Positions 2,774 to 63,729 of a stretch of DNA of 64,000 nucleotides are shown piece by piece. The notes under the pieces are model-generated. The model searched no databases, was not told the DNA's origin, and was given only the letters and a program-made list of their open reading frames with translations. The translations under genes and the position numbers were made by a program. Position 1 is the first letter of the stretch. Each line of letters starts with the position of its first letter. The stretch is from Candidatus Acidiferrum sp. (GTDB lineage: Bacteria > Acidobacteriota > Terriglobia > Acidiferrales > UBA7541), in NCBI GenBank assembly GCA_049792735.1, contig JBARBE010000047.1:57359-121358 (forward strand), read 5' to 3'.

Positions 2774-3235
2774 TCACTCGATTAGTCTCCTCGGGGAGAG
2801 CTGGGCCGTTGTCAGCCAAAAATCATTGATGTTTTTGATGAGTTTCTCGAACGCGTCCAATTCCACGGGCTTGCAGAGGTAGCAGTTGGCATGGAGCTGA
2901 TAGCTCTTAGCGATATCCGCTTCGGCTGCCGAAGTGGTAAGGATGACCGTAGGGATGGTTTTCAGGCTGGCGTCCTCCTTGATACAGGCCAGCACCTCAC
3001 AGCCATCCATTCTGGGGAGGTTCAAATCCAGTAGGATAAGATCCGGGCGAAGGGCCATACTGCGTGCCCCTTCGCGATGGAGATAGGCCATGGCCTCGAC
3101 CCCGTCGGAAGCCAGGTGCAATTGGATGGATGGATTAGCCTCAAGGAACGCTACCTGTGTCAGCCGTGCATCACCGAGACTGTCCTCCACCAAAAGAACC
3201 TGCGTGCGCCTATCCTTGACTTCGAGACCGTTCAT
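2774..3235 (-). CDS. Single-domain response regulator, paralogue of 2138-2599
   Basis: 153 aa, roughly 70% identical by eye to the neighbouring receiver. Its start overlaps the kinase stop by 4 nt (3232-3235). Confidence 0.9.
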   Translation of the reverse strand: MNGLEVKDRRTQVLLVEDSLGDARLTQVAFLEANPSIQLHLASDGVEAMAYLHREGARSMALRPDLILLDLNLPRMDGCEVLACIKEDASLKTIPTVILTTSAAEADIAKSYQLHANCYLCKPVELDAFEKLIKNINDFWLTTAQLSPRRLIE

Positions 3236-5280
3236 GAAGTTTTCTCACTTTCCGCCAGGGCGAAGCGAAATGTAGAGCCATGCCCCAGCCTTGAGTCGAC
3301 CGAGATGCTACCGCCATGCCGCTCGACAATTTTCTTGCAGATGGCCAATCCTATGCCGGTCCCAGCAAATTCTTCGCGTTTATGCAGCCGCTGGAACATG
3401 CCAAAAATCCTTTCAAAGTACTGGGAGTCGATTCCCAGTCCGTTGTCTTTCACGGAAAATGTCCACATCTTGCCGCCATTCTTGGCTGCAGAAATGTGCA
3501 CTTTAGGGATTCCGGACCTCTGGTACTTGATGGCATTTCCTACAAGGTTCTGAAATAGCTGCACGAGTTGCATTTCGTCCGCCAGCACGGACGGCAGTGG
3601 GTCGTGAGTCACCAGCGCTCCTTTTTCCCCTATCGCGCCCTGCAGGTTGAGCAGCGCCTGTTGCAGCGCGTCTTCACTGGAGATATCCAGCAAATCTCTG
3701 CCTTTTGTCCCCACACGCGAATAGGCCAGCAAGTCCTGGATCAAGCGCTGCATGCGGCTGGCGCCATCCACTGCGAAGGCGATGAACTCATCGGCATCGG
3801 AGTCCAGCTTTCCTTTGTAGCGTCTGGACAAGAGCTGCGTGTAACTGGCCACCATGCGCAGCGGCTCCTGTAAATCGTGAGAGGCAATGTAGGCAAATTG
3901 TCCTAATTCCTCATTCGATCGGTTTAGTTCCTCGACTTTGCACAGAAGATCAGCTTCGGCCTTTTTGCGCCTGGTGATGTCACGGACCGCCACCGTCACC
4001 AGGATGCCCTCGGCGCTCTCCAGCGGGCTCAGCATAAGCTCGATCGGAAATTCGGTGCTGTCCTTGCGCCGTCCCGTAAGCTCAATCCCCGTGCCGATCT
4101 GCTGTGCCAGCGCGTCTTCCACCGATCGGAGAGCGTCCGCGACCAACCGTTCCGCGAAACCCTCCGGAATGATGTTCTTCACCTTCTGACCGATCAGCTC
4201 ATCGCGGCTATATCCGAATTGTTTCTCCGCCTGCACGTTCAGCAGCACGATGGCTCCGCTCTGATTCACCACCACCATCGCATCTGGTGCCGCCTCCAGC
4301 AGCCCGCGGTATCGGCCCTCCATCTGCGCTAGATGCTTCTCGGCGGCTTTGCGTACGCTAATATTGCGGATCGCGGCCGTCACCAGCGTCCCCTCCGCGC
4401 TTTCCAGGGGACTCAGCATGATCTCGATCGGAAATTCAGTCCCATCCTTTCGCAGGCCGATGAGTTCTATTCCCGTGCCGATCTGCTGCGCCAGCGCGTC
4501 CGCCGCGCTTCTTGTACCGTCAGCTATCAGCCGTTCCGCAAAACCTTCAGGGATAATGTTCTTGACCCTCTGCCCGACGAGTTCATCGCGGCTGTATCCG
4601 AACTGCTTTTCTGCCTGGACGTTCAGCAGGACGATCTCTCCTCCCTGGTTTACCACCACCATGGCATCCGGTGCCGCTTCAAGAAGGCCGCGGTACCGAC
4701 CCTCCATCTGGGCCAAATGCTTTTCCGCAGCCTTGCGTACGCTGATATCGCGGATCGCAGCCGTCACCAGAGTTCCTTCGGCGCTTTCCAGTGGACTCAG
4801 CATGATTTCGATCGGAAATTCCGTTTTGTTCTTTCGCCGGGCAATCAGCTCGATCCCCGTGCCGATTTGCTGCGCCAGCGCGTCTGCGGCGCTTCGCGTT
4901 CCGTCTGCGATCAGCCGTTCCGCGAAGCCCTCAGGAATGATGTTCTTTACCTTCTGCCCTACCAGTTCATCGCGGCTATAGCCAAACTGTTTTTCCGCTT
5001 GAACATTGAGCAGAACAATCTCTCCGCCTTCGTTTACGACTACCATCGCATCCGGTGCCGCTTCCAGTAACCCTCTATACTTCGCGCCGGAGTCCTTGCT
5101 CTCGGGGTTGTCACGCTGCAGCTTGCCCCTCATCACGGATTTCGTCTTCATCGCACGCCTAGCTGAAAAGGGAGTTCTATTCCGGACACGGTCCCGAGGG
5201 CTGAAAGAGGGCAGCCTGTAGCCGCGTGCCGATTTTATTCGAAGGGAATCTAAGCTTATACCGGCCCTACGCCCGGTCAA
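3232..5280 (-). CDS. Sensor histidine kinase with three tandem PAS domains
   Basis: Has a HisKA H-box (FAYIASHDLQEPLRMV) and HATPase blocks (NLVGNAIKY, DNGLGID, GTGIGLAICKKIVERHGG). The track start is TTG at 5280. An ATG at 5151 (MKTKSVM) is an alternative start. Confidence 0.9.
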   Translation of the reverse strand: MTGRRAGISLDSLRIKSARGYRLPSFSPRDRVRNRTPFSARRAMKTKSVMRGKLQRDNPESKDSGAKYRGLLEAAPDAMVVVNEGGEIVLLNVQAEKQFGYSRDELVGQKVKNIIPEGFAERLIADGTRSAADALAQQIGTGIELIARRKNKTEFPIEIMLSPLESAEGTLVTAAIRDISVRKAAEKHLAQMEGRYRGLLEAAPDAMVVVNQGGEIVLLNVQAEKQFGYSRDELVGQRVKNIIPEGFAERLIADGTRSAADALAQQIGTGIELIGLRKDGTEFPIEIMLSPLESAEGTLVTAAIRNISVRKAAEKHLAQMEGRYRGLLEAAPDAMVVVNQSGAIVLLNVQAEKQFGYSRDELIGQKVKNIIPEGFAERLVADALRSVEDALAQQIGTGIELTGRRKDSTEFPIELMLSPLESAEGILVTVAVRDITRRKKAEADLLCKVEELNRSNEELGQFAYIASHDLQEPLRMVASYTQLLSRRYKGKLDSDADEFIAFAVDGASRMQRLIQDLLAYSRVGTKGRDLLDISSEDALQQALLNLQGAIGEKGALVTHDPLPSVLADEMQLVQLFQNLVGNAIKYQRSGIPKVHISAAKNGGKMWTFSVKDNGLGIDSQYFERIFGMFQRLHKREEFAGTGIGLAICKKIVERHGGSISVDSRLGHGSTFRFALAESEKTS
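3940..5079 (-). repeat. Intragenic triplication of a 128-aa (384-nt) PAS module
   Basis: The unit YRGLLEAAPDAMVVVN.GGEIVLLNVQAEKQFGYSRDEL...AEKHLAQMEGR repeats at residues 68-195, 196-323 and 324-~445. The repeat boundaries are 5079/4695/4311. Confidence 0.85.
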
Positions 5281-5329: not shown

Positions 5330-7168
5330 TCACTTCATCGGTGCAACGAGTTGAACCTCGGATTCCTGCGGCAAGGTATAAGAGTTCGCTTCCGATGCCG
5401 CAAGGGTTCGCTCCACGGCGGCCGAGTCCAGCGGCCTGGAGAAAAGATAACCCTGAGCAAATTCACAACCAAGCGACTTCAGCAGATTCATCTGTTCGCG
5501 GGTTTCCACGCCTTCCGCGACGACTTTCATGCGCAGGTTTTTTCCAAGGCTGAGAATGGTTTTTACGATTTCCTGGCTTTCGTTGTTGTTTAGCATGTCG
5601 GTCACAAAGGACCGGTCGATTTTCAAGATATCCAGAGCAAATCGGCGCAAGTAGCTCAAAGAGGAATATCCGGTTCCGAAGTCATCGATGCACAAACGCA
5701 CTCCCAGACCTCGAAGTTCGCTAAGAATTCGCGTGGTTCGCTCCTCATCGCGCATGGTCACGCTCTCGGTAAGTTCCAGTCTCAAGATTTCTGGCACCAG
5801 GCCTGTGGTGCTCAAGACCTGGGAGATTTGACTCACTAAATTGGCCTGCGCAAACTGCTTGGCGGAGATATTGACGGCCATTGTAAACGGGGACGCGCTC
5901 GGAAATTGCAGGTTCCAAGCGCAGATCTGGCGGCAAGCTTGCTGCAAAACCCACTCCCCAATCCACAGAATCAAGCCGGTATCCTCAGCGGCTGTGATGA
6001 ACCCTCCCGGCATTACCAGGCCAAACCCCGGCCTCTGCCATCGCACCAGCGCTTCGAACCCGGTGATGCGAAAATCGATCAGCGAGACGATCGGCTGGTA
6101 ATGGATGAGAAATTCCTGTTTTTCTGTCGCCCGGCGAAGATCCGTCTCCAGCCGGAATCGGCCCGCGGCGGTGGCATGCATCGATGGGTCGCACATTTCA
6201 TACCGCGCCTTGCCAAGAATCTTGGCCCGCGCCATCGCCGTGTTTGCATCGCCGAGCATGTCTTCCGCCGCGCTATAACCACTGCCGCTGAACGCGATGC
6301 CCACACTCGCCGTGGTGAAGACCGCTTGTCCATCGACATCGAAGGGCGCTTGGATGCTTTTTTGGATTCGTTCCGCCACCCGAATTCCTTCGCTGGCGTT
6401 CCGGATGTTATCCAGCAGGATGGTAAATTTATCGCCTCCCACTCTCGCCACTATGCCGGGCTCCGCGAGTCGACCGGCCGTCCCTCCCGTTTCCGTGGTA
6501 CGCGAGATCACATCATCCCGCCGGATGGACCCAAGCAGCCGTTCCGCGATTTGCACCAGAAGCCAGTCGCCCGCCGAGATGCCCAGACTGTCATTCACGA
6601 CTTTGAAGCGATCCATGTCGACGGATAACACTGCAAATTTATAATCCGGATGGAGCATGCCCCAGCTCACGCACAGCATCAATCGCTCCAGAAAAAAGGA
6701 ACGGTTGGGCAGCTGCGTGAGCGGGTCGTGAAGAGCATCGAAGGTCAGTTTGTCTTCCAGTCTCAGAATGCGTTCACCGGAGCGCAAGCGTGCTTTCAGT
6801 TCTTCCGCGTCGCAGGGCTTCGTAATATAGTCATCGGCGCCTGCTTCGAGACCCGTGACAACGTCCACCTTGGCGGTTTTCGCGGTCAGCAAAATAATGT
6901 ACGCGTAGGGATGTTCGGAATGCCTGCGTATCTCACGGCAAACTTCGACCCCGTTGAGCCCCGGCATGAGCCAATCCAATAGTGCCAACCGCGGCCCATC
7001 CGCTCTGGACAGGGATTGCAAAGCCTGGCGCCCGTTCTCGACGGCAACAACTTCATAACCGGCTTGCCCCAACATTTTCTCCAGAAGACGTCGTGTAATA
7101 GCGTCATCGTCGGCAATGAGGATCCTCGTTGCCTGCTGTTTTTGTCCCCGCCTCGATCTCAAGTTCAC
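5330..7168 (-). CDS. Response-regulator receiver / degenerate GGDEF (GGDKF) / EAL phosphodiesterase
   Basis: 612 aa. The receiver shows ILIADDD and LALLDWLMPG. The GGDEF-domain signature reads GGDKF (6425-6439). EAL blocks are intact (EALVRW, ELTES, DDFGTGYSSL, KIDRSF, QGYLFSRP). The start codon is GTG. Confidence 0.9.
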   Translation of the reverse strand: MNLRSRRGQKQQATRILIADDDAITRRLLEKMLGQAGYEVVAVENGRQALQSLSRADGPRLALLDWLMPGLNGVEVCREIRRHSEHPYAYIILLTAKTAKVDVVTGLEAGADDYITKPCDAEELKARLRSGERILRLEDKLTFDALHDPLTQLPNRSFFLERLMLCVSWGMLHPDYKFAVLSVDMDRFKVVNDSLGISAGDWLLVQIAERLLGSIRRDDVISRTTETGGTAGRLAEPGIVARVGGDKFTILLDNIRNASEGIRVAERIQKSIQAPFDVDGQAVFTTASVGIAFSGSGYSAAEDMLGDANTAMARAKILGKARYEMCDPSMHATAAGRFRLETDLRRATEKQEFLIHYQPIVSLIDFRITGFEALVRWQRPGFGLVMPGGFITAAEDTGLILWIGEWVLQQACRQICAWNLQFPSASPFTMAVNISAKQFAQANLVSQISQVLSTTGLVPEILRLELTESVTMRDEERTTRILSELRGLGVRLCIDDFGTGYSSLSYLRRFALDILKIDRSFVTDMLNNNESQEIVKTILSLGKNLRMKVVAEGVETREQMNLLKSLGCEFAQGYLFSRPLDSAAVERTLAASEANSYTLPQESEVQLVAPMK

Positions 7169-7817
7169 GCCGGCCTCCGATGGCCCACGAGATGCCCGTT
7201 GTTAATCTCGGAAGCTGTGAACACGCAAAGAATGTCCGCAGGTTGCTGGGAAGTGCCGGCCAGTCGCCATTCATCGCGCTGAGTTCGCGGTTCGCTACGG
7301 AACAAGAGATGCGCAGATTTGGCCTTTGCCAGCTTTGCCAGATCAATTGTCATCGCAGGGTGGATTTTGCTGCTTCTCGTCTTCAATATGCTCTCCCAGA
7401 ACGTCCAACGACGCTGAGGCAACTCGCATTTACCCGTCTGCGGGCGGATGCAGAATTACATCTGGGACATTCAGTTCCTGAAAGCTGGGAGAGAGAAGGC
7501 GCAGCCCGAGAAACAGATTGTTGAAGGGTAGAGTCAGTGTCACCCCCCGCATACTAGGAGTCAATGATTACTTCCGGGCTTTGTCCGAGGCAAGCTACCC
7601 CCCGACGCGTAAATATTCCCAAGGGATCTTTCTCTTTTGAGATGTGATTTCCTGGTGCGAAACCGTAGACGCTTCGAATGCGCCAAGCAGACAGAATTTT
7701 AGGAGGAACCCTTTGCTGGGGATCACGATGGACGGAGAGGGACCTTGGACCTTATAGTTCGTGCCTGACCTGATTTTTGGCCCAATTTCTCCAAAATCTC
7801 AGTCCGTTATTGAAGAA

Positions 7818-7844
7818 CAGCGGGCGAGCCTGTAAGCCGGAATC
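7818..7844 (+). repeat. Orphan copy A of the RNase P RNA 3'-terminal 27-mer
   Basis: cagcgggcgagcctgtaagccggaatc matches 56913-56939 at 25/27 positions in the same orientation. Confidence 0.8.
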
Positions 7845-8254
7845 GTCAAGCCCATTTTTGTTTTCAATAAGTTGCGTGGAATCGACAAAAGCGATCTGTC
7901 CACGGAGTCAGTTTAGACAGCAAGAGCAGGTTTCGTGTCACAGTTATGGCACAATTTTCGATCTATCCGGGATCCTGAAAATCAGTCAAGCCGCTTCCCG
8001 GTTCCAGAGGTCTTCTTCGTTAGCCGAAAGAGATTTGGTGTACTCTAAGCGCTCGCTGCCAGCGGGCAACCCGCAGAGGAAGACCTGCGGTGCTGGCAGT
8101 TGAGATTGCCATTGAGGTGCCCAGCATCACAAGAGGTCGAGCGAACCGTCCGAAAGCGGGTGCTGATATTTTTTGGGGCGGCGACCGCGCTCCCTGCACC
8201 CATTGAGAATACTCGGATAGATGGGAATCATCGTGAATCGAGATTGAGATTGAG

Positions 8255-9334
8255 TTGATGGACGCACCTAAGGAACTAAACGAGATCGTTCTTCCGCAGA
8301 GTGTGGTCGGCCCGCTGACCCGCGCGGCGATTTTTCTGGTCCTCTGCATTCGCCCAGAACAGGACAACTATGCGACGTTGCGATCCTTCTGCGCGGACCT
8401 CTCAGGCCTCGTGCGCGCTGTAGAGTTTCGGGACGTGGAAGCCGGTCTTACTTGTGTCGTTGGATTCGGCTCGGACGCCTGGGACAAACTCTTTGGATCA
8501 CCTCGCCCCGCCGAGCTCCATCCGTTCCGGGAGATTCGCTCCGGCGGCCGCCATGCCGTCTCCACTCCAGGTGACATTCTGTTTCATATTCGAGCCAAAC
8601 GCGCCGACCTCTGTTTTGAATTGGCCACACAGATCATGGACAACATTGGTGATGTAGTTTCCGTTGCCGACGAGGTTCACGGCTTCCGCTATTTCGATGA
8701 TCGCGATGTCATCGGGTTCGTCGACGGCACAGAAAATCCGAGAGGCGGTGCAGCGCACGAGGCCGCAATTGTCGGCGACGAAGATCCAGCCTTTGCCGGC
8801 GCCAGCTATGTCGTCGTCCAAAAGTATCTTCACGACATGAAGGGATGGAATGCTCTTCCGGTTGAAACGCAAGAGCGCATCATTGGCCGCAAGAAACTCT
8901 CGGACATCGAATTGAACGACGCCGAGAAGCCGCCGTACGCGCACAATGCGCTCACCGTGATCGAAGAAAACGGAAAAGAAGTTAAAATCCTGAGAGACAA
9001 CATGCCTTTCGGCCGGCCGGGCCACGGCGAGTTCGGGACCTACTTCATCGGCTATAGCCGCACTCCGCGCATCACCGAAACGATGCTTGAGAATATGTTC
9101 GTCGGTCGTCCTCCGGGCACCTACGATCGATTGCTCGATTTCAGCACAGCGGTTACCGGGAGTTTGTTTTTTGTGCCGTCATCGACGTTTCTCGACAGCG
9201 TCAGCGGAGACGCACCGAACTCCGCCGCAATCGGAGTATCACCGAGATCGGACGCGACTTCGGCTCCATCCACGGACGATTTATCTCTCGGATCGCTCGG
9301 AATAGGATCTCTTAAAGGACAGAAACATGAATAA
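8255..9334 (+). CDS. Dye-decolorizing (DyP-type) peroxidase with C-terminal encapsulin targeting peptide
   Basis: Contains the DyP motif IGFVDGTENP. The C-terminal tail DDLSLGSLGIGSLKGQKHE (9275-9319) matches the SLGIGSLKG-type cargo-loading peptide. The likely ATG is at 8258. The 3' end overlaps the shell gene by 8 nt. Confidence 0.9.
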   Translation: MMDAPKELNEIVLPQSVVGPLTRAAIFLVLCIRPEQDNYATLRSFCADLSGLVRAVEFRDVEAGLTCVVGFGSDAWDKLFGSPRPAELHPFREIRSGGRHAVSTPGDILFHIRAKRADLCFELATQIMDNIGDVVSVADEVHGFRYFDDRDVIGFVDGTENPRGGAAHEAAIVGDEDPAFAGASYVVVQKYLHDMKGWNALPVETQERIIGRKKLSDIELNDAEKPPYAHNALTVIEENGKEVKILRDNMPFGRPGHGEFGTYFIGYSRTPRITETMLENMFVGRPPGTYDRLLDFSTAVTGSLFFVPSSTFLDSVSGDAPNSAAIGVSPRSDATSAPSTDDLSLGSLGIGSLKGQKHE

Positions 9335-10139
9335 CCTGCATCGGGAGTTAGCTCCCATCTCTGACGCAGCATGGGCGCAGATCGAGGAAGAAACGACCAG
9401 GACGCTCAAGCGTTATCTCGCCGGACGACGGGCTGTTGATGTTCCTTCGGCGGGAGGAATCGCGTTGCCGGGAGTTGCGACCGGCCACCTGCGGCCGATT
9501 GCAGCTCCTGCAGATGGCGTCCTCGCGAGACAACGAGAGGTGAAGCCTCTCGTGGAGTTGCGCGTGCCCTTCGAGCTATCGCGTCAGACCATCGACGACG
9601 TAGAGCGTGGATCAGATGACTCCGATTGGCAGCCTGCAAAAGAGGCCGCGAAGAGAATTGCGTTTGCCGAAGATCGCGCCATTTTCAACGGATACCACGA
9701 CGCAGGTATACAAGGCATTCGGGAAGGCACAAGTAATCCCATTGAGACGCTTCCTGCGGATGTGCGTGAATATCCGGATGCTGTATCACACGCATTGAGC
9801 CAGCTACGTCTGGTCGGCGTGAACGGACCCTACTCGGTGTTGCTCGGAGCCAATGAGTATACGGCGCTCGCCGAAACCCGAGATCAAGGTTACCCCGTCC
9901 TTGAGCACGTTAAGCGCATCGTCGACGGCAATCTGATCTGGGCTCCGGCGATCGAAGGTGCGTTCGTCCTGACCACGCGCGGCGGCGATTTCGAGCTGAA
10001 CATCGGGCAGGATGTTTCCATCGGCTACCTCAGCCACACCGATTCCGTGGTAAGGCTGTATCTTCAGGAGACGTTTGTTTTTCGCGTGCTCACAAGCGAA
10101 GCGTCTGTTGCGTTGTCGCCGACACAGAAGTCTTCGTAA
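9327..10139 (+). CDS. Family 1 encapsulin shell protein (linocin M18 / Cfp29-like)
   Basis: 270 aa. MNNLHRELAPISDAAWAQIEEE...DGPYSVLLGANEYT...FVLTTRGGDFEL...VRLYLQETFVFRVL aligns by eye along its full length with mycobacterial Cfp29-type encapsulins. Confidence 0.92.
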   Translation: MNNLHRELAPISDAAWAQIEEETTRTLKRYLAGRRAVDVPSAGGIALPGVATGHLRPIAAPADGVLARQREVKPLVELRVPFELSRQTIDDVERGSDDSDWQPAKEAAKRIAFAEDRAIFNGYHDAGIQGIREGTSNPIETLPADVREYPDAVSHALSQLRLVGVNGPYSVLLGANEYTALAETRDQGYPVLEHVKRIVDGNLIWAPAIEGAFVLTTRGGDFELNIGQDVSIGYLSHTDSVVRLYLQETFVFRVLTSEASVALSPTQKSS

Positions 10140-10240
10140 ACGTGTTCTGCATGATCTGGCTGGGTTGAGGAATCGCCCGGAGACGTCTGAATTCATCGCC
10201 GACGTATCAACATCCACGCGGCTCGGCGATTCGTAAGAAT

Positions 10241-10267
10241 AAGCGGGCGAGCCATGTAAACCGGATT
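10241..10267 (+). repeat. Orphan copy B (more decayed) of the RNase P RNA 3'-terminal segment
   Basis: aagcgggcgagccAtgtaaAccggatt. Relative to copy A it has one inserted base and one substitution. Same strand. Confidence 0.6.
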
Positions 10268-10889
10268 GTCCGGGCAGTTTCTTACTTTCAGTAAATTACA
10301 TTGAATCAACCGACGCAGTCTGTCAATCAAGTCAGTCTGGGCATCAACGATAGGTTACCCGGCACAGTTGTTACACAACATCTGACAGCAATGGTCATCA
10401 GTGGTTCGAGATACTCCCGATCGCGGCCGTCCCCGGAGAGCCCGGCTTATCCCACGTGGCTAAATAATGTGTGATCCTCTGTAGATAAATCTCCGGTCAC
10501 CCGAAGCTTTCCGGGTGTTCTCGAACGTGGCCTTGGCAATTGGCCAGAACGGGACGAACATTCCTGGAACCACAAATACCACTTGGACTCTCCGTCAGTC
10601 TGTTCCAAAGGACACAGGTAAGCGTTCTGCGTCATCGTGCTCGCCACGCTGAATATGGCATCGACGAGCTCCGAAGTGGATTTACGCCCCGAGGGAGGTG
10701 GCCCACGAATGCTGTCTCCAGGTTCGGCGGCTTCCTCGCAAAATGGACCCGGTGCGCTATTTTGAACAGCCAGGTGTTGAGAATCTTCTTATCTTGAGAT
10801 GACCTCGGAATTCGGCAGTGAAACCGTACTTGAGAAAGACACCCGTCGCCGAGGAAGCTCAAGATGAATTTCACTCTTAGGAGGAATGA

Positions 10890-11045
10890 ATGGCTACCAA
10901 CAATCCAAAGAAATGCGCTCATCCAAACTGCTCGTGCACGGCGATGGCCGGAAAGTACTGCAGCGTGCAGTGCGAAACGATGGAAAAAACGCCGGACATC
11001 GAATGCAAATGCGGCCACCCAGTGTGCAAAGGGAAAATAGATTAG
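10890..11045 (+). CDS. Small Cys-rich protein, bacterial metallothionein-like (SmtA/BmtA-type pattern)
   Basis: 51-aa ORF below the track cutoff: MATNNPKKCAHPNCSCTAMAGKYCSVQCETMEKTPDIECKCGHPVCKGKID. It has 9 Cys and 2 His, and an AGGAGG sits 6 nt upstream of the ATG. The pattern KCA..C.C...YCS..C...C.CGH..C resembles cyanobacterial SmtA. Confidence 0.6.
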   Translation: MATNNPKKCAHPNCSCTAMAGKYCSVQCETMEKTPDIECKCGHPVCKGKID

Positions 11046-11109
11046 AACCCCCGTGCGTTCCAGCGGCTGCGCGTTGTCAAAGATATCGGATTTTGAGAGG
11101 AGCTATCCA

Positions 11110-11289
11110 ATGAAGCCAAGTATCCAAGATGAAGCAGAGGGAAAGTTTCACGACTTGAAGGGGAAAGTGAAGAAAAAGGCAGGGCAGCTTACGAATGATC
11201 CGGATCTGGAGGCCGAAGGCCAAGCTGAAGAGATAAGCGGGAAAGTTCAGGAAAAAGTCGGACAAGTAAAGAAAGTTCTCGGCAAATAA
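11110..11289 (+). CDS. CsbD-family general stress protein
   Basis: 59 aa: MKPSIQDEAEGKFHDLKGKVKKKAGQLTNDPDLEAEGQAEEISGKVQEKVGQVKKVLGK. A GAGAGGAG Shine-Dalgarno sequence lies upstream of the internal ATG. Confidence 0.85.
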   Translation: MKPSIQDEAEGKFHDLKGKVKKKAGQLTNDPDLEAEGQAEEISGKVQEKVGQVKKVLGK

Positions 11290-11394
11290 AAACGGTTCCG
11301 CGCGGAAAAGGCTGGACCTATCGAGCATCCGCCCGGAACGCGCAGTGCAACCGGGACGAGAGTCAAGAGTATTGCAAACTGAGAGGAGCTTGAA

Positions 11395-11550
11395 ATGTTA
11401 CTGCTAATTATTGTTTTGTTGCTGCTGTTCGGTGGCGGAGGCGGCTATTACGGATACTCAAGATGGGGCGGTCGCGGCGGCATCGGGATCGTCGGCATTG
11501 TGCTCATCATTTTTGTGGTTGTCTACCTGTTCGGCGGTCTTCGGATCTAG
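11395..11550 (+). CDS. Small Gly-rich membrane protein (DUF3309-like)
   Basis: 51 aa: MLLLIIVLLLLFGGGGGYYGYSRWGGRGGIGIVGIVLIIFVVVYLFGGLRI. GAGAGGAG lies upstream. Not in the ORF track (under 60 aa). Confidence 0.6.
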   Translation: MLLLIIVLLLLFGGGGGYYGYSRWGGRGGIGIVGIVLIIFVVVYLFGGLRI

Positions 11551-14139: not shown

Positions 14140-14256
14140 TCTTGCGACTGTTCCTTTGGTGTCCCCTTCCGCACTGATGTGTGCATTCCGGTACAGTTCC
14201 TTTGGGAAGAGCCTGCTAAGCTCACAGCAAAGCGCTCGACAGGAACAGAGGAAGAC

Positions 14257-14907
14257 ATGAAACGCAATCACAAGAAGTCTACAACCCTAACGGGCTTTGG
14301 AACCGGCACTAGCCTGGGCGGGAAAATTTCGCAGTTTAGAAGTAAACAAAACATTTACAAGCAAGGCGCGCGGGCATACACGCTTTTCTACATTCAAGAA
14401 GGCGGGGTGAGGCTCACCACCCGAACGAACTCCCAAGCTGCGGCAGTTACGGCAATTCTGGGCGTCCATGATTTTTTCGGCGAGCTCTGCCTTGCAGGCT
14501 ATCCGCTTCGGCTGTCCACGGCAGTTGCATTGACCGCCAGCTCGATTCGCACTATCAATAAAGCAAAAATGCTGGAGATGCTTCGCAAAAAGAACAAAAC
14601 GTCGAACGCGCTGGTGGCCTACCTGCTATCCAGCGTAAAGAGCTACAGCGATCACGTGGCGAATTTGCTGACGTCCTCCGCGGAACATCGGCTGGCGCGC
14701 GTACTGTTGAGGCTGGCGCACCTGGATAAGAACGGGCGACCGGTTACTGAAATTCCTTTTTTGAGTCATCAGGTTCTGGCGGAAATGGTGGGGACAACGC
14801 GCTCACGCGTGAATCTCTTCATGAATCGATTCCGCAGAAAGGGATACATCGATTACGATGGTGGATTAGAGGTGCGCCAATCGTTGCGCAAGGCTCTACG
14901 AGGTTAG
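14257..14907 (+). CDS. Crp/Fnr family transcriptional regulator
   Basis: Has a cNMP-binding beta-barrel (LFYIQEGGVRLT, FFGELCLAG) and a C-terminal HTH (SHQVLAEMVGTTRSRVNLFMNRFRRKGYI). Confidence 0.85.
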   Translation: MKRNHKKSTTLTGFGTGTSLGGKISQFRSKQNIYKQGARAYTLFYIQEGGVRLTTRTNSQAAAVTAILGVHDFFGELCLAGYPLRLSTAVALTASSIRTINKAKMLEMLRKKNKTSNALVAYLLSSVKSYSDHVANLLTSSAEHRLARVLLRLAHLDKNGRPVTEIPFLSHQVLAEMVGTTRSRVNLFMNRFRRKGYIDYDGGLEVRQSLRKALRG

Positions 14908-15024: not shown

Positions 15025-15756
15025 GTGCTACTGTCGAGCATGTTGCCTTCTCCGATTCGACGTGTATCTGGCCCATCCTCCCCTGGAGCGACTCGTAAAA
15101 CACAACCTGTGATTGCAGCATTCGATGTGGAATTGTTTCTGGACTCGGCCGGCCTCGGTAGAAAAGTAGATAACTTTGAAGCCAAAGAAACGGTCTTCGC
15201 GCAGGGCGATCCCGCGACGAGTGTAATGTACATTCAACTGGGGGGCGTGAAGCTGACGGTAGTCAATGAATCCGGCAAAGAAGCAGTAGTAGCAATTCTC
15301 GGGCCCGGAGATTTTTTTGGAGAGGGATGCCTTGCAGGTCAATCCGTCTCCGTGGCCACAGCGACCACGATCGCACCGACCACCGTGCTCGTCATTGCGA
15401 AAGAGAAGATGATTCAGGTACTCCACAACGAAAGCAAGTTCTCCGATCGCTTTATAGCTTATATGCTGGCACGTAACCTGCGGGTTGAGGAGGATTTGAT
15501 CGACCAACTCTTCAACTCGAGCGAAAAACGGCTGGCGCGGACGCTTTTGCTGCTCGCACGTTATGGCGCTCGAGGGCAGCCTGAAAAGATACTTCCCAAA
15601 GTATCTCAAGAGCTGCTGGCAGAGATGATTGGCACGACCCGGTCCCGGGTCAACTTTTTTATGAACAAATTCAAAAAACTGGGTTTTATCCAATACAGCA
15701 ACAACCATGCGATCCACATCGATCCGTCCTTACTGAATATCGTCTTGCACGACTAA
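15025..15756 (+). CDS. Crp/Fnr family transcriptional regulator (paralogue)
   Basis: Contains VMYIQLGGVKLT, FFGEGCLAG and the HTH SQELLAEMIGTTRSRVNFFMNKFKKLGFI. The start is either GTG at 15025 or ATG at 15040. Confidence 0.85.
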   Translation: MLLSSMLPSPIRRVSGPSSPGATRKTQPVIAAFDVELFLDSAGLGRKVDNFEAKETVFAQGDPATSVMYIQLGGVKLTVVNESGKEAVVAILGPGDFFGEGCLAGQSVSVATATTIAPTTVLVIAKEKMIQVLHNESKFSDRFIAYMLARNLRVEEDLIDQLFNSSEKRLARTLLLLARYGARGQPEKILPKVSQELLAEMIGTTRSRVNFFMNKFKKLGFIQYSNNHAIHIDPSLLNIVLHD

Positions 15757-55444: not shown

Positions 55445-56203
55445 TCAAGCTCGCCTTGAGGCAACAGCTAGATTCGATCCTGTATCCGGCTCATCCACGC
55501 CAGCCGTTGCATTCTGTTGACCATGGCCGTCTCGCCGGTCGATCGCGTAAAGCGCCAACTCAAGCCGATTCGAAGTTCCTACTTTGTTGAAGATCCTGAA
55601 CAAATAGTTCCGAACGGTGTGTTCGCTCAGCTTCAGCTCTTGCGAAATGTCACGATTGGTCATGCCTTCGGCTACCAGATGCACGACGCCTTCTTCCCTC
55701 TTGGTTAGCAGTCCCGCCGCTCTCAGCGAAATTGCCTTAGCTAACGGAGCCGGACCGAGCGCTTCGAGGACGAAGTGCAATTCCTTGCTGCTTGCCCACA
55801 CTTGTCCTTTGTGTACCGCGTGGATGCATTTGCACAGCAACTCCGACGATTGATCTCGTGAGAAAATGCCACTCGCTCCAGCTCGAAACGCTTCGACCAC
55901 CATCGCAGGTTTGTTCGAGTCGAGGATCATGATGACGCTGGGTTTGGAGGGCGATGCCACTATCTCTCGCGTCACTTGGAAGCCCGCCAGGTCTTCGTTT
56001 TCTAGCCGGGCGCCAATCACTGCAACGTCTGCATTGTTCTTTTCAAGACCTTCGCGTATTCCTAGCGCGTCCGTCGCATATCCAACAACCCTTGTTTTAT
56101 ACCGGCCACGTCGCACCGCCGCCGCGATTAGTTGGCAGCTCAGTTGACTGCCATCGGCGATAAAAACCTTTACCGTACCCGCGCGTCCTGCGAGTTTCGA
56201 CAA
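55445..56203 (-). CDS. LuxR/FixJ-type regulator with atypical (pseudo-)receiver domain (EpsA-like)
   Basis: The C-terminal HTH reads LTKREEGVVHLVAEGMTNRDISQELKLSEHTVRNYLFRIFNKVG. The receiver fold is present, but the acidic pair reads DG and the phospho-acceptor position reads G (DVAVIGARL). Confidence 0.85.
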   Translation of the reverse strand: MSKLAGRAGTVKVFIADGSQLSCQLIAAAVRRGRYKTRVVGYATDALGIREGLEKNNADVAVIGARLENEDLAGFQVTREIVASPSKPSVIMILDSNKPAMVVEAFRAGASGIFSRDQSSELLCKCIHAVHKGQVWASSKELHFVLEALGPAPLAKAISLRAAGLLTKREEGVVHLVAEGMTNRDISQELKLSEHTVRNYLFRIFNKVGTSNRLELALYAIDRRDGHGQQNATAGVDEPDTGSNLAVASRRA

Positions 56204-56544: not shown

Positions 56545-56757
56545 TCACTGACTTGGCCGAAGTTCCCAACTCGGCTCTGATCTTTGATTCTCCCGCTCAA
56601 GCTGTCGAGTACATTCCGCGATTTGATCATCAATCGCTCTAATTTCCAGAGCGAGATGGAGATCATTGGGGCATTTTCCGTATCTCTTGGATAGCGGAGC
56701 TCTTCTATCCTGGAGAGCTTCGCGTTTTCGCTTCCAAACGCCTGCGCGCGCCGTCAT
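56545..56757 (-). CDS. Hypothetical small basic protein (70 aa)
   Basis: The ATG at 56757 follows GGAGAAGG. No family was recognised. It lies immediately downstream of rnpB on the same strand. Confidence 0.3.
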   Translation of the reverse strand: MTARAGVWKRKREALQDRRAPLSKRYGKCPNDLHLALEIRAIDDQIAECTRQLERENQRSEPSWELRPSQ

Positions 56758-56910
56758 TCGCCTTCTCCTCGCAACAAGTCTCGACTGACCGGAAAAGGGA
56801 TGTCTGTTCAATTTTGTACAACCCTCTTTATGCCGCGAGTTGGAGGTTAACGCTGAAAAAATTGGGAAGAACTTGGGAAGATACGTCAGAACAACGGTAA
56901 CTCGTTCAAA

Positions 56911-57542
56911 ATCAGCGGGTGAGCCTGTAAGCCGGATTCTGTGCAACGCGTCTCCCCGTAAAGGACAACGCGCTGCGGCGATCATTCCTCTAGGCCGTGA
57001 TTCGCACCACGGCTCCAGCAGCCTACCCGAGGGTTGCTCTCCGCGTCGGATTGCTCCATCGCAGAGGAAGAGCGCTAGCTTTCGCAGGCGTTCTCGGCGA
57101 GCCGGGCCGGCTCTCCCCTCCTATTTGGCCTTGCACCACGCGGGGTTTTCCGTGCCTCGTTTGTTGCCAAACGAGCGGTGGGCTCTTACCCCACCTTTTC
57201 ACCCTTGCCTAACTGAGCGAGCGTTTCGAAGACGTCCCGCAGGTTTTCCTGCGCGATGCCACCGTGCTTCTCCCAGCCGGCGGTATATTCTCTGTGGCAC
57301 TTTCCGTGAACAGTAGCACAGGCTTCAGCCTGTGCTCTTTCGCCGTCGCACGATTCGCGCACGACGGAAGCACAAGCCAGCCGCACAGACTCAAGTCTGT
57401 GCCACCGCTCCCCTGGCGTTACCAGGCGCGTTGCCCTATTTCGTCACCGGCCCTCTCGAGCCTACGACGACGGTGTCCGGACTTTCCTCCCGCTCAGCCA
57501 TCTTGCGATGACCAAGCCAGCGATCACCCAGCTCACCCGCCA
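56911..57542 (-). ncRNA. rnpB: RNase P RNA, bacterial type A, unusually long (~630 nt)
   Basis: Read on the minus strand, the conserved blocks are GGGAGGAAAGUCCGGACAC (57475-57491), GCCUGGUAACGCCAGGGG, GUGCCACAGAGAAUAUACCGCC, AAGGGUGAAAAGGUGGGGUAAGAGCCCACC, GCAAGGCCAAAUAGG, GGGUAGGCUGCUGGAGCC and ACAGAAUCCGGCUUACAGGCUCACCCGC. The 5' GCGGGUGAGCUG pairs with the 3' CAGGCUCACCCGC to form P1. The ends are approximate. Confidence 0.9.
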
Positions 57543-57593: not shown

Positions 57594-59642
<2,049 letters not shown>

Positions 59643-59681
59643 TCAATTTCGCCAGACATTATATAGAATGAATACCGCCTG

Positions 59682-59710
59682 TGGAGTGCGGCAGCCCTGC
59701 TGCCGCTTTT
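59682..59710 (+). repeat. Conserved hairpin repeat, copy 1 (TGGAGTGCGGCAGC-CCT-GCTGCCGCTTTT)
   Basis: An 8-bp GC-rich stem with a T run. It lies in the divergent ligA / lipid kinase intergenic region. Confidence 0.8.
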
Positions 59711-61818: not shown

Positions 61819-61825
61819 AAACAAT

Positions 61826-61853
61826 GTGGAGTGCGGCAGCCCTGCTGCCGCTT
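61826..61853 (+). repeat. Conserved hairpin repeat, copy 2
   Basis: tggagtgcggcagccctgctgccgcttt, between convergent genes. It could act as a bidirectional terminator. Confidence 0.8.
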
Positions 61854-61877
61854 TCTGCCGCTCACAAGTGATTTGTT

Positions 61878-62492: not shown

Positions 62493-62505
62493 TCGCCACC
62501 CGAGT

Positions 62506-62537
62506 TTGGAGTGCGGCAGCCCAGCTGCCGCTTTTTT
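62506..62537 (+). repeat. Conserved hairpin repeat, copy 3
   Basis: tggagtgcggcagcccagctgccgcttttttt. The loop is CCA instead of CCT. Confidence 0.8.
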
Positions 62538-63578: not shown

Positions 63579-63700
63579 CAGTTTTGATGCTCCGTATTCG
63601 CCGCGGTACCCTGCTACTAACGGTCTGCACCCGCGCCTGCTTGGACCCTTCCCGGCGCCGATTTCGCGCTCTCAGGACCATCCCCGGCGGTATCCTAATT

Positions 63701-63729
63701 TGGAGTGCGGGAGCCCTGCTCCCGCTTTT
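63701..63729 (+). repeat. Conserved hairpin repeat, copy 4 (with compensatory stem change)
   Basis: tggagtgcggGagccctgctCccgctttt. The C-to-G change in the 5' arm is matched by a G-to-C change in the 3' arm. Confidence 0.8.

Follow-up and report, generated by a model that had tools for sequence, protein, structure and literature searches.

Orphan copies of the rnpB 3' end as probable integration scars around a DyP-encapsulin operon in an Acidobacteriota genome

Genomic islands and prophages enter the 3' ends of transfer RNA (tRNA) and transfer-messenger RNA (tmRNA; ssrA) genes by means of tyrosine integrases, P4-type elements being one example, and island-finding tools have been built around these targets; surveys by K. 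P. Williams are said to document islands and prophages at such gene ends. At fda of Streptococcus thermophilus, ICESt1 and ICESt3 form accretion arrays with cis-mobilizable elements (CIMEs). Here, a 64,000-nucleotide (nt) stretch of DNA from Candidatus Acidiferrum sp. (contig JBARBE010000047.1), called the window in its entirety, is described, in which the 3' end of rnpB, the gene for RNase P RNA, recurs as two orphan copies on either side of an operon encoding a DyP peroxidase and an encapsulin. As judged from the sequence, the best reading is that integrative elements were very probably inserted by an integrase into the rnpB 3' end, at least twice in the lineage of the window, and that their mobility genes were subsequently lost. 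L-numbers are used below for loci in related sequences.

The elements at rnpB resemble islands at tRNA and tmRNA genes in that a block of identity covers the 3' end of a stable-RNA gene, the gene is rebuilt and the displaced end becomes a far direct repeat; in both, the integrase adjoins the in-gene copy, and tandem arrays and decayed, integrase-less remnants are common. They differ in their target, rnpB, where the repeated block spans the 3' strand of P1/P2 together with some 10 nt of the conserved ACAGAAUCCGGCUUA stretch, in their hosts, which are soil Acidobacteriota, and in that no phage or conjugation genes were recognised in the rnpB elements seen. As in CIME arrays, integrase-less units flanked by attachment (att) sites stand in tandem at the site used by integrase-bearing relatives, although mobilisation of such units has been shown experimentally for CIMEs and is a possibility for the rnpB units. 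Integrons likewise consist of small gene units beside a tyrosine recombinase gene, the most recent unit lying closest to the primary site; the rnpB-linked integrase, however, is not of the IntI type, and the repeated site is a piece of rnpB with an arm of about 125 nt and does not look like an attC hairpin.

Outside tRNA and tmRNA genes, phage phiEf11 of Enterococcus faecalis integrates into ffs, the 4.5S RNA gene, which was presented as a new kind of non-coding RNA target, the earlier ones named being only tRNA/tmRNA and csRNA (PMC12540744, 2025). The phage shares with the rnpB case a 27-nt core within a stable-RNA gene that is neither tRNA nor tmRNA, and an integrase near its own site, attP; its host, however, is a Firmicute, and it is a temperate phage that has been characterised, attP and the bacterial site attB having been confirmed by polymerase chain reaction (PMC12540744), whereas the rnpB elements are known from sequence alone. 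No report of rnpB as an attachment site was found in the literature searched, although large island catalogues could still list such sites. The mechanism is that known from tRNA and tmRNA genes, and rnpB, a target that is widespread in this understudied phylum, appears to be undescribed as such. The rnpB-linked elements of relatives belong to the integrative elements found in stable-RNA genes, the window itself holding only integrase-less remnants.

The repeat copies and the gene from which they derive are located in the window as follows.

7818-7844, + strand: copy A, orphan rnpB 3' end and putative distal scar at the chromosome/insert junction, 25/27 identical to 56913-56939; homology to L074 ends after GCCGGA(A/T)TC
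10241-10267, + strand: copy B, putative second scar, more decayed, with an insertion and a substitution in the 20-nt core
56912-57539, - strand: rnpB, intact (Rfam RF00010), its last 27 nt (56913-56939) forming the in-gene repeat copy

The three copies described in the original prediction were found at these positions, all in direct orientation. Copy A (cagcgggCgagcctgtaagccggaAtc) is identical to the in-gene copy (cagcgggTgagcctgtaagccggaTtc) at 25/27 positions, and the pair lengthens to 35 nt at 86% identity with a repeat finder; copy B (aagcgggcgagccAtgtaaAccggatt), in the same orientation as the other two, has an extra A and a substitution relative to the 20-nt core. The placement of rnpB on the minus strand with its 3' end facing left was borne out by a match to the bacterial type A RNase P RNA (207.9 bits), and as this match is complete (model positions 1-367 of 367), the in-gene copy is the 3' end of the gene. 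The RNA of the window measures 628 nt against the 367-position model and carries several large insertions; in relatives its length is 498-631 nt. A 22-mer that includes one degenerate position, GCGGGYGAGCCTGTAAGCCGGA, occurred twice in the window against 0.00 expected from 100 shuffles, and the core was not matched with up to three errors in 880 kb of shuffled related sequence. To the right of copies A and B, alignment revealed no similarity to the rnpB body, divergence beginning directly after the core, and no Rfam family was found in 7000-11500 even at E<=1. Duplicated or pseudo-rnpB genes, which had been considered and dismissed beforehand, were thus ruled out, there being no likeness to RNase P RNA at either orphan beyond the last 27 nt. 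No tRNA genes that could serve as alternative att sites were present in the window or beside the homologues of its exopolysaccharide (EPS) locus.

Sites lacking one or both of the proposed inserts were found in relatives, and two flanking segments of the window have direct counterparts there.

7169-7817: ancestral downstream flank of rnpB, now 49 kb from the gene; 75% nt identity over 687 nt to L074:4017-4694
10140-10240: encapsulin downstream flank, homologous to L097:1297-1357, L126:10815-10875 and L123:1980-2096, where full rnpB comes next, and to the left flank of the orphan in L068

Locus L074 represents an empty site for the whole 49 kb. Its homologues of the PAS kinase (87% amino acid (aa) identity) and of the receiver-GGDEF-EAL protein (90% aa) are followed by a 650-nt spacer, 75% nt identical to window 7169-7844, that runs straight into a complete rnpB. 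When the three sequences were aligned, copy A shared its left flank, and the rnpB of the window its right flank, with L074, and the switch fell exactly at the repeat. The expectation that rnpB would stand beside the receiver-GGDEF-EAL operon where the inserted segments are absent was thereby realised, and the corresponding arrangement for the encapsulin side was seen in L097, L123 and L126, which carry DyP-encapsulin and, after 39-104 nt, a complete rnpB, the 46.6 kb being absent. In other genomes the encapsulin flank leads to an orphan and then to other DNA (L068, L107, L125, L124 with two orphans and L020 with three); the insert measures 23.7 kb to rnpB in L068/L024 and 3.1 kb, with a Ser/Thr kinase, in L107. 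Such a site, unoccupied in some genomes and holding varied cargo in others, carries the signature of an integration hot spot.

Related loci were collected by searching one genome from each species for exact matches to CGGGYGAGCCTGTAAGCCGGA, which returned at least 120 stretches; the counts that follow, and those for integrases further on, are among the matches listed. Nearly all came from Acidobacteriota metagenome-assembled genomes labelled Acidoferrum, Acidiferrales or Terriglobia, a group into which the window also falls, its best ligA match being to L038 (92% aa). Three loci with Acidobacteriota-type rnpB ends or arms (L066, L081 and L093) are binned as Dongiaceae, Eisenbacteria and Verrucomicrobiia, a placement that probably reflects mis-binning rather than transfer. 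Sorted by the conserved P4 strand at rnpB distance, the matches comprised 75 rnpB ends, 7 probable ends (cut by the sequence end), 32 orphans, 4 'long' matches and 5 at block ends. Clustering of the genes in these loci showed that ligA and the genes after it keep their synteny on the side of the rnpB body, and that the side beyond the 3' end differs in almost every genome.

The orphans follow one geometry. Of the 21 orphans that share a contig with the gene, 20 have the same orientation as its 3' end and lie beyond that end, at 0.6-49 kb; 16 of the 21 distances are 0.6-4.1 kb, and spacing from orphan to orphan in L020, L103 and L124 is 0.6-4.3 kb. Tandem scars are seen in the window (two, and rnpB), in L020 (three orphans) and in L103, L124 and L069 (two each). 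The sole exception is an rnpB 3' fragment of at least 50 nt on the opposite strand, 759 kb from rnpB, in the complete chromosome OY970253.1 (fragment at ~1,664,277, L102; rnpB at ~905,462, L112), an arrangement that suggests a large inversion ending at an att site. The 27-mer had been open to refutation as a generally dispersed repeat, and the geometry does not show one. Only the shortness of the repeat speaks for chance matches or a dispersed repeat unrelated to rnpB, an explanation that is vanishingly improbable given the 20 of 21 orphans in direct 3' position and the absence of matches in shuffled sequence. An orphan in OY969113.1 (L047:2368-2388 and rightward) extends over more than 120 nt of the 3' region of rnpB, stands 3.95 kb away from the gene proper and falls below the Rfam threshold. 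Group II intron RNA domains were noted in L020:7425-7647, about 2.1 kb past the third orphan on the insert side, and in L061:7392-7539, about 1.5 kb past the rnpB 5' end on the conserved ligA side.

A candidate enzyme for such insertions is encoded next to rnpB in relatives. One cluster of variable-side genes consists of tyrosine recombinases of 400-437 aa (PF00589 with a SAM-like N-terminal domain), and a tyrosine integrase adjoins rnpB in about 15 loci, fragments and presumed cases included. Between the end of the integrase gene and the 3' end of rnpB there are 18 nt in L016, L053, L072 and L092, and the integrase lies at most ~0.8 kb from rnpB in L046, L058 and L109; the integrase-adjacent copy in L062 (58 nt) and L110 (~0.6 kb) is cut off by the end of the block, its identity as rnpB being presumed, and fragments of integrase are found in L003, L010, L031, L039 and L044. 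In L043 the integrase adjoins an orphan, which indicates a tandem array. Among the integrase-linked loci scanned with Rfam, rnpB was complete in 8/8. We infer that the family-6 integrase is the responsible enzyme. Scores of the rnpB-linked integrases against the integron integrase model TIGR02249 were 22-27 bits, the cut-off being 265. Further integrase-linked open reading frames in L072 (120, 361 and 306 aa) had no Pfam or NCBIfam match. A phage origin was considered and rejected, as the core was absent from a viral contig collection, in which the integrase had one distant (31%) relative.

The orphans are also joined by the sequence to their right, which in the window comprises the following two segments.

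7845-7960, + strand: element-side att arm of copy A (family 2), with motifs TTTTCAATAAGTT and GTCACAGTTATGGCACA, near the consensus
10268-10377, + strand: element-side att arm of copy B (family 2, decayed), 70-78% identical to arms in L128, L103, L027 and L081

An insert-side arm of about 125 nt is common to 15 junctions, those of copies A and B among them, with left flanks that are mutually unrelated. Its consensus reads GAATCTTCG...TTTCAATAAGTT.CGTAGAATCAA...GTCAA.GAAGTCAGTTTTG.CAGC...GTTT.GTG.CACAGTT.TGGCACAGTTT, and in 13 loci the homology stops at one point (...GGCACAGTTTT), after which the cargo is unrelated. The arm of copy A is 77-85% identical to orphan arms in L005, L008, L093, L103 (two), L081, L124 (two), L128 and L020, and about 74% identical to that of L100; at least two further arm families stand next to other orphans. 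The core is bracketed by an inverted repeat of 9-13 bp, TTATTGAAAA/TTTTCAATAA, about 45-50 nt apart (7806-7817 with 7865-7876 in the window; also in L103 and L081), and the right-arm motif GTCACAGTTATGGCACA occurs in several other loci to the left of the core as well. Single-strand folding of the core inverted repeat gave z scores of +1.5 to -2.1 against shuffled sequence. As folding was no better than in the shuffled controls, the inverted repeat looks more like protein-binding sites than a hairpin, and both it and GTCACAGTTATGGCACA are candidates for such sites; no significant attC-like hairpin was seen at the junctions. At the other end of the proposed inserts, the 58-nt stretch at 56855-56912 contains cggtaactcgttcaaaat, which resembles ccgtaacttattgaaaa to the left of many rnpB copies, and this stretch is possibly a remnant of the integrase-side arm of an element.

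The point of crossover may be narrowed by an extra A (GAGCC-A-TGTAAG / -ATATAA-) shared by copy B and the orphans of six genomes, among them L027:5421, L103:5152, L020:1055, L124:2964 and L131:18414. No extra A was seen in the rnpB copies listed by error-tolerant scans, and it is probably a feature of the own att site of one element family. Since it recurs in orphans and was unseen in those rnpB copies, its derivation from the element's site would place the crossover within the last ~12 nt of rnpB.

These observations can be assembled into the following mechanism. The rnpB 3' end would serve as attB for integrative elements with a tyrosine integrase in Acidobacteriota (Terriglobia, 'Acidoferrum/Acidiferrales'-like), the element's own att site holding a copy of the last ~27 nt of rnpB. 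Recombination within this block would put the element downstream of rnpB and restore an intact gene, and the original 3' end would be displaced to the far end as the orphan copy, beside the conserved arm of the element. Successive insertions would stack, the oldest lying farthest from rnpB. Copy A would then be the junction of the old rnpB flank, on the receiver-GGDEF-EAL side, with a 2.4-kb DyP-encapsulin remnant, and copy B the junction of that remnant with the 46.6 kb now beside rnpB; both inserts would have lost their integrase and become fixed. The proposal that the orphans are integration scars of the attL/attR type, as originally put forward, gains support from the empty sites, the direct 3'-side geometry, the integrases of relatives and the shared arms.

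Several observations weigh against integration in the window. No integrase, excisionase or remnant of either was detected in 7.8-56.9 kb by Pfam or tblastn, as the original prediction had also noted, and Pfam revealed no transposase or conjugation gene there; an integrase inside the insert next to the in-gene repeat is thus a feature present in relatives and absent from the window. The best tblastn match of nine rnpB-linked integrases (E=0.016) lies in a polysaccharide deacetylase gene and was rejected as an integrase remnant. There is no compositional boundary: GC content is 0.54-0.56 inside and 0.56-0.58 outside the proposed inserts, and tetranucleotide correlations between insert and flank (0.67-0.87) overlap that between the two flanks (0.80). 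Homologues of the EPS/exosortase genes (the block from LuxR to exosortase) adjoin other genes, not rnpB, in L203-L207, and the block from BON to EPS is collinear in L209 with other left neighbours, homology starting from ~10900. A free or phage-borne attP was not found with two core patterns in the viral contig collection, the collection scan that returned at least 120 stretches gives no genome-wide copy number of the core, and sequence alone cannot display an excision product. Uniform composition across the proposed boundaries had been named in advance as telling against the islands, and both GC and tetranucleotides proved uniform. This uniformity argues against a recent foreign origin, not against integration, and together with the lack of an integrase it points to inserts that are fixed remnants, in agreement with the earlier suggestion of a fixed or decayed island.

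The larger of the two proposed inserts is delimited by the arm of copy B and a short stretch before rnpB.

10378-56854: 46.5-kb interval without a mobility gene (Pfam), with stress, regulator and EPS/exosortase genes
56855-56912: 58-nt stretch between the end of EPS-locus homology (L205/L206 homology ends at 56854) and rnpB

Within the 46.6 kb no further scars were found, blastn with all left and right arms returning only the arms at A and B, and an error-tolerant search for the core gave only chance-level matches with four errors. Among the ~200 loci collected by the motif and encapsulin scans, none had anything resembling the rnpB-proximal genes of this interval beside rnpB. Homology to L205/L206 reaches window 56854, 58 nt short of the core, and as its homologues lie beside varied neighbours, the block has the character of a unit that occurs at various positions. 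In L203 the LuxR-type regulator is immediately preceded by an IS21 pair, an excisionase-like HTH_17 gene and a tyrosine integrase other than the rnpB-linked one (L203:2036-8267); no rnpB core was found near its EPS homologue. We infer that all of the 46.6 kb may have entered as cargo of an rnpB-targeting element. Of the two tandem insertions that had been predicted, the insertions themselves are upheld by scars A and B and by the empty sites of relatives, and a single island of 46.6 kb is called into question, since the block is found away from rnpB in relatives.

An alternative for this interval, which is considered unlikely though worth retaining, accepts the scars as real and holds that the 46.6-kb block was never an island: a small element would have inserted between encapsulin and rnpB and decayed to its two arms, and the stress and EPS genes would have come by later rearrangement or homologous replacement. 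It would account for the native composition of the block, its lack of mobility genes and the same gene order in relatives away from rnpB, and the arms that remain amount to ~110 nt on the right and at most a possible 58 nt on the left; furthermore, the OY970253 fragment, on the other strand from rnpB, shows that rearrangements at rnpB att sites do happen. This alternative, however, needs extra steps, with end points within ~60-500 nt of two att arms, and the EPS homology of L205/L206 ends 58 nt from the core, as would be the case for a discrete unit. Other genomes also hold 11-40 kb between repeats at the same site.

The smaller of the proposed inserts, between copies A and B, is integrase-less and carries two genes as its cargo.

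8255-9334, + strand: DyP peroxidase (Pfam)
9327-10139, + strand: encapsulin (Pfam)

The 2.4-kb segment consists, in order, of the arm, the DyP upstream region, DyP, encapsulin and 100 nt. L128 shares this arm and both genes, with the orphan 423 nt upstream of DyP and a different left neighbour, a DinB-like gene; in L126 a decayed orphan with an arm of another family precedes DyP by 2.1 kb. Nucleotide identity to L123/L126 is 87-89% for DyP and encapsulin, compared with 71-79% for three other genes on those contigs, rnpB, ligA and the one that follows, and ligA identity to the window does not exceed 84% nt for any genome in the compared set. The difference between 87-89% and 71-79% indicates exchange of the operon between lineages more recently than the lineages split, and DyP-encapsulin accordingly looks horizontally exchanged.

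This unit bears on another possibility, that of a gene-capture array in which integrase-less cassettes, made up of the rnpB-3' core, the ~125-nt arm and one to three cargo genes such as DyP-encapsulin, are inserted or reshuffled in trans by the integrase adjacent to rnpB. Many units are indeed small and integrase-less, as the distances and spacings given above attest, the arm ends at one point in 13 loci before unrelated cargo, the DyP-encapsulin unit occurs in varied contexts and is more alike between genomes than core genes are, and in L043 an integrase stands beside an orphan. The integrases are, however, generic tyrosine recombinases scoring far below the integron cut-off, the core inverted repeat folds no better than shuffled sequence, and ordinary islands under a strong deletion bias would give the same picture. 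A capture array is therefore thought rather improbable; if it were true, Acidobacteriota would possess an rnpB-anchored platform, a functional analogue of the integron built on the end of an essential ribozyme gene.

A function for the orphans themselves had also been raised, in that RNA read from the + strand across A or B would base-pair with the RNase P RNA 3' terminus, and the orphans might be kept because such transcripts modulate that RNA. A + strand transcript over A would be complementary to the RNase P RNA 3' end at 25/27 positions, and a weak promoter-like site was noted at 7729-7758, upstream of A. Promoter-like sites, however, numbered 2 against 1.9 expected by chance, the DyP upstream region shared with loci lacking copy A begins at ~8014-8035, downstream of A, and orphan cores gather errors (2 in B, 2-3 in L124 and 4 in L126), whereas the in-gene copy has at most one error in most of the related rnpB genes examined. 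The antisense idea was thus left without support and is judged extremely improbable.

If integration into rnpB is the correct reading, an essential ribozyme gene would be added to the list of attachment sites, and orphan rnpB 3' ends would offer a simple marker for the limits of variable DNA in this phylum, of whose mobile elements hardly anything is known. The DyP-encapsulin operon, and possibly the exosortase/EPS locus too, would be placed in such variable slots, and a candidate integrase with its att pairs would become available for genetic tools in Acidobacteria.

The remaining genes referred to above are located as follows (all assignments from Pfam).

3232-5280, - strand: PAS histidine kinase
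5330-7168, - strand: receiver-GGDEF-EAL gene
55445-56203, - strand: LuxR-type regulator
57594-59618, - strand: ligA

The gene content agrees with the earlier description of dyp, encapsulin, a cyclic di-GMP operon, stress proteins and regulators, and an EPS/exosortase locus. Copy B is followed by genes for small stress proteins, a BON protein, an ECF sigma factor, two Crp-type regulators and a response regulator. The polysaccharide locus encodes, in its first part, FemAB-like acetyltransferases, deacetylases, epimerases, glycosyltransferases, a flippase, Wzy and a priming transferase, and in its second, exosortase EpsH, EpsI, chain-length and export proteins, a NusG-like protein and PilZ. The PAS kinase gene contains three tandem 384-nt repeats (3956-5023) that are 76-77% identical and encode repeated PAS domains. 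The two Crp-family genes (14179-14907 and 15025-15756) are diverged tandem duplicates, and L209 has this pair as well. Upstream of the LuxR-type regulator, a conserved stretch at ~56545-56757 (-), 85% nt identical to L205/L206, matches a called 70-aa gene of L205 and may be a small protein gene of the EPS locus. To the right of ligA, a 36-nt element, TGGAGTGCGGCAGCCCTGCTGCCGCTTTT, occurs in four intergenic copies (59675-59710, 61820-61855, 62500-62535 and 63694-63729); their GC-rich hairpin and the T run after it are suggestive of an intrinsic-terminator family or of a small dispersed repeat.

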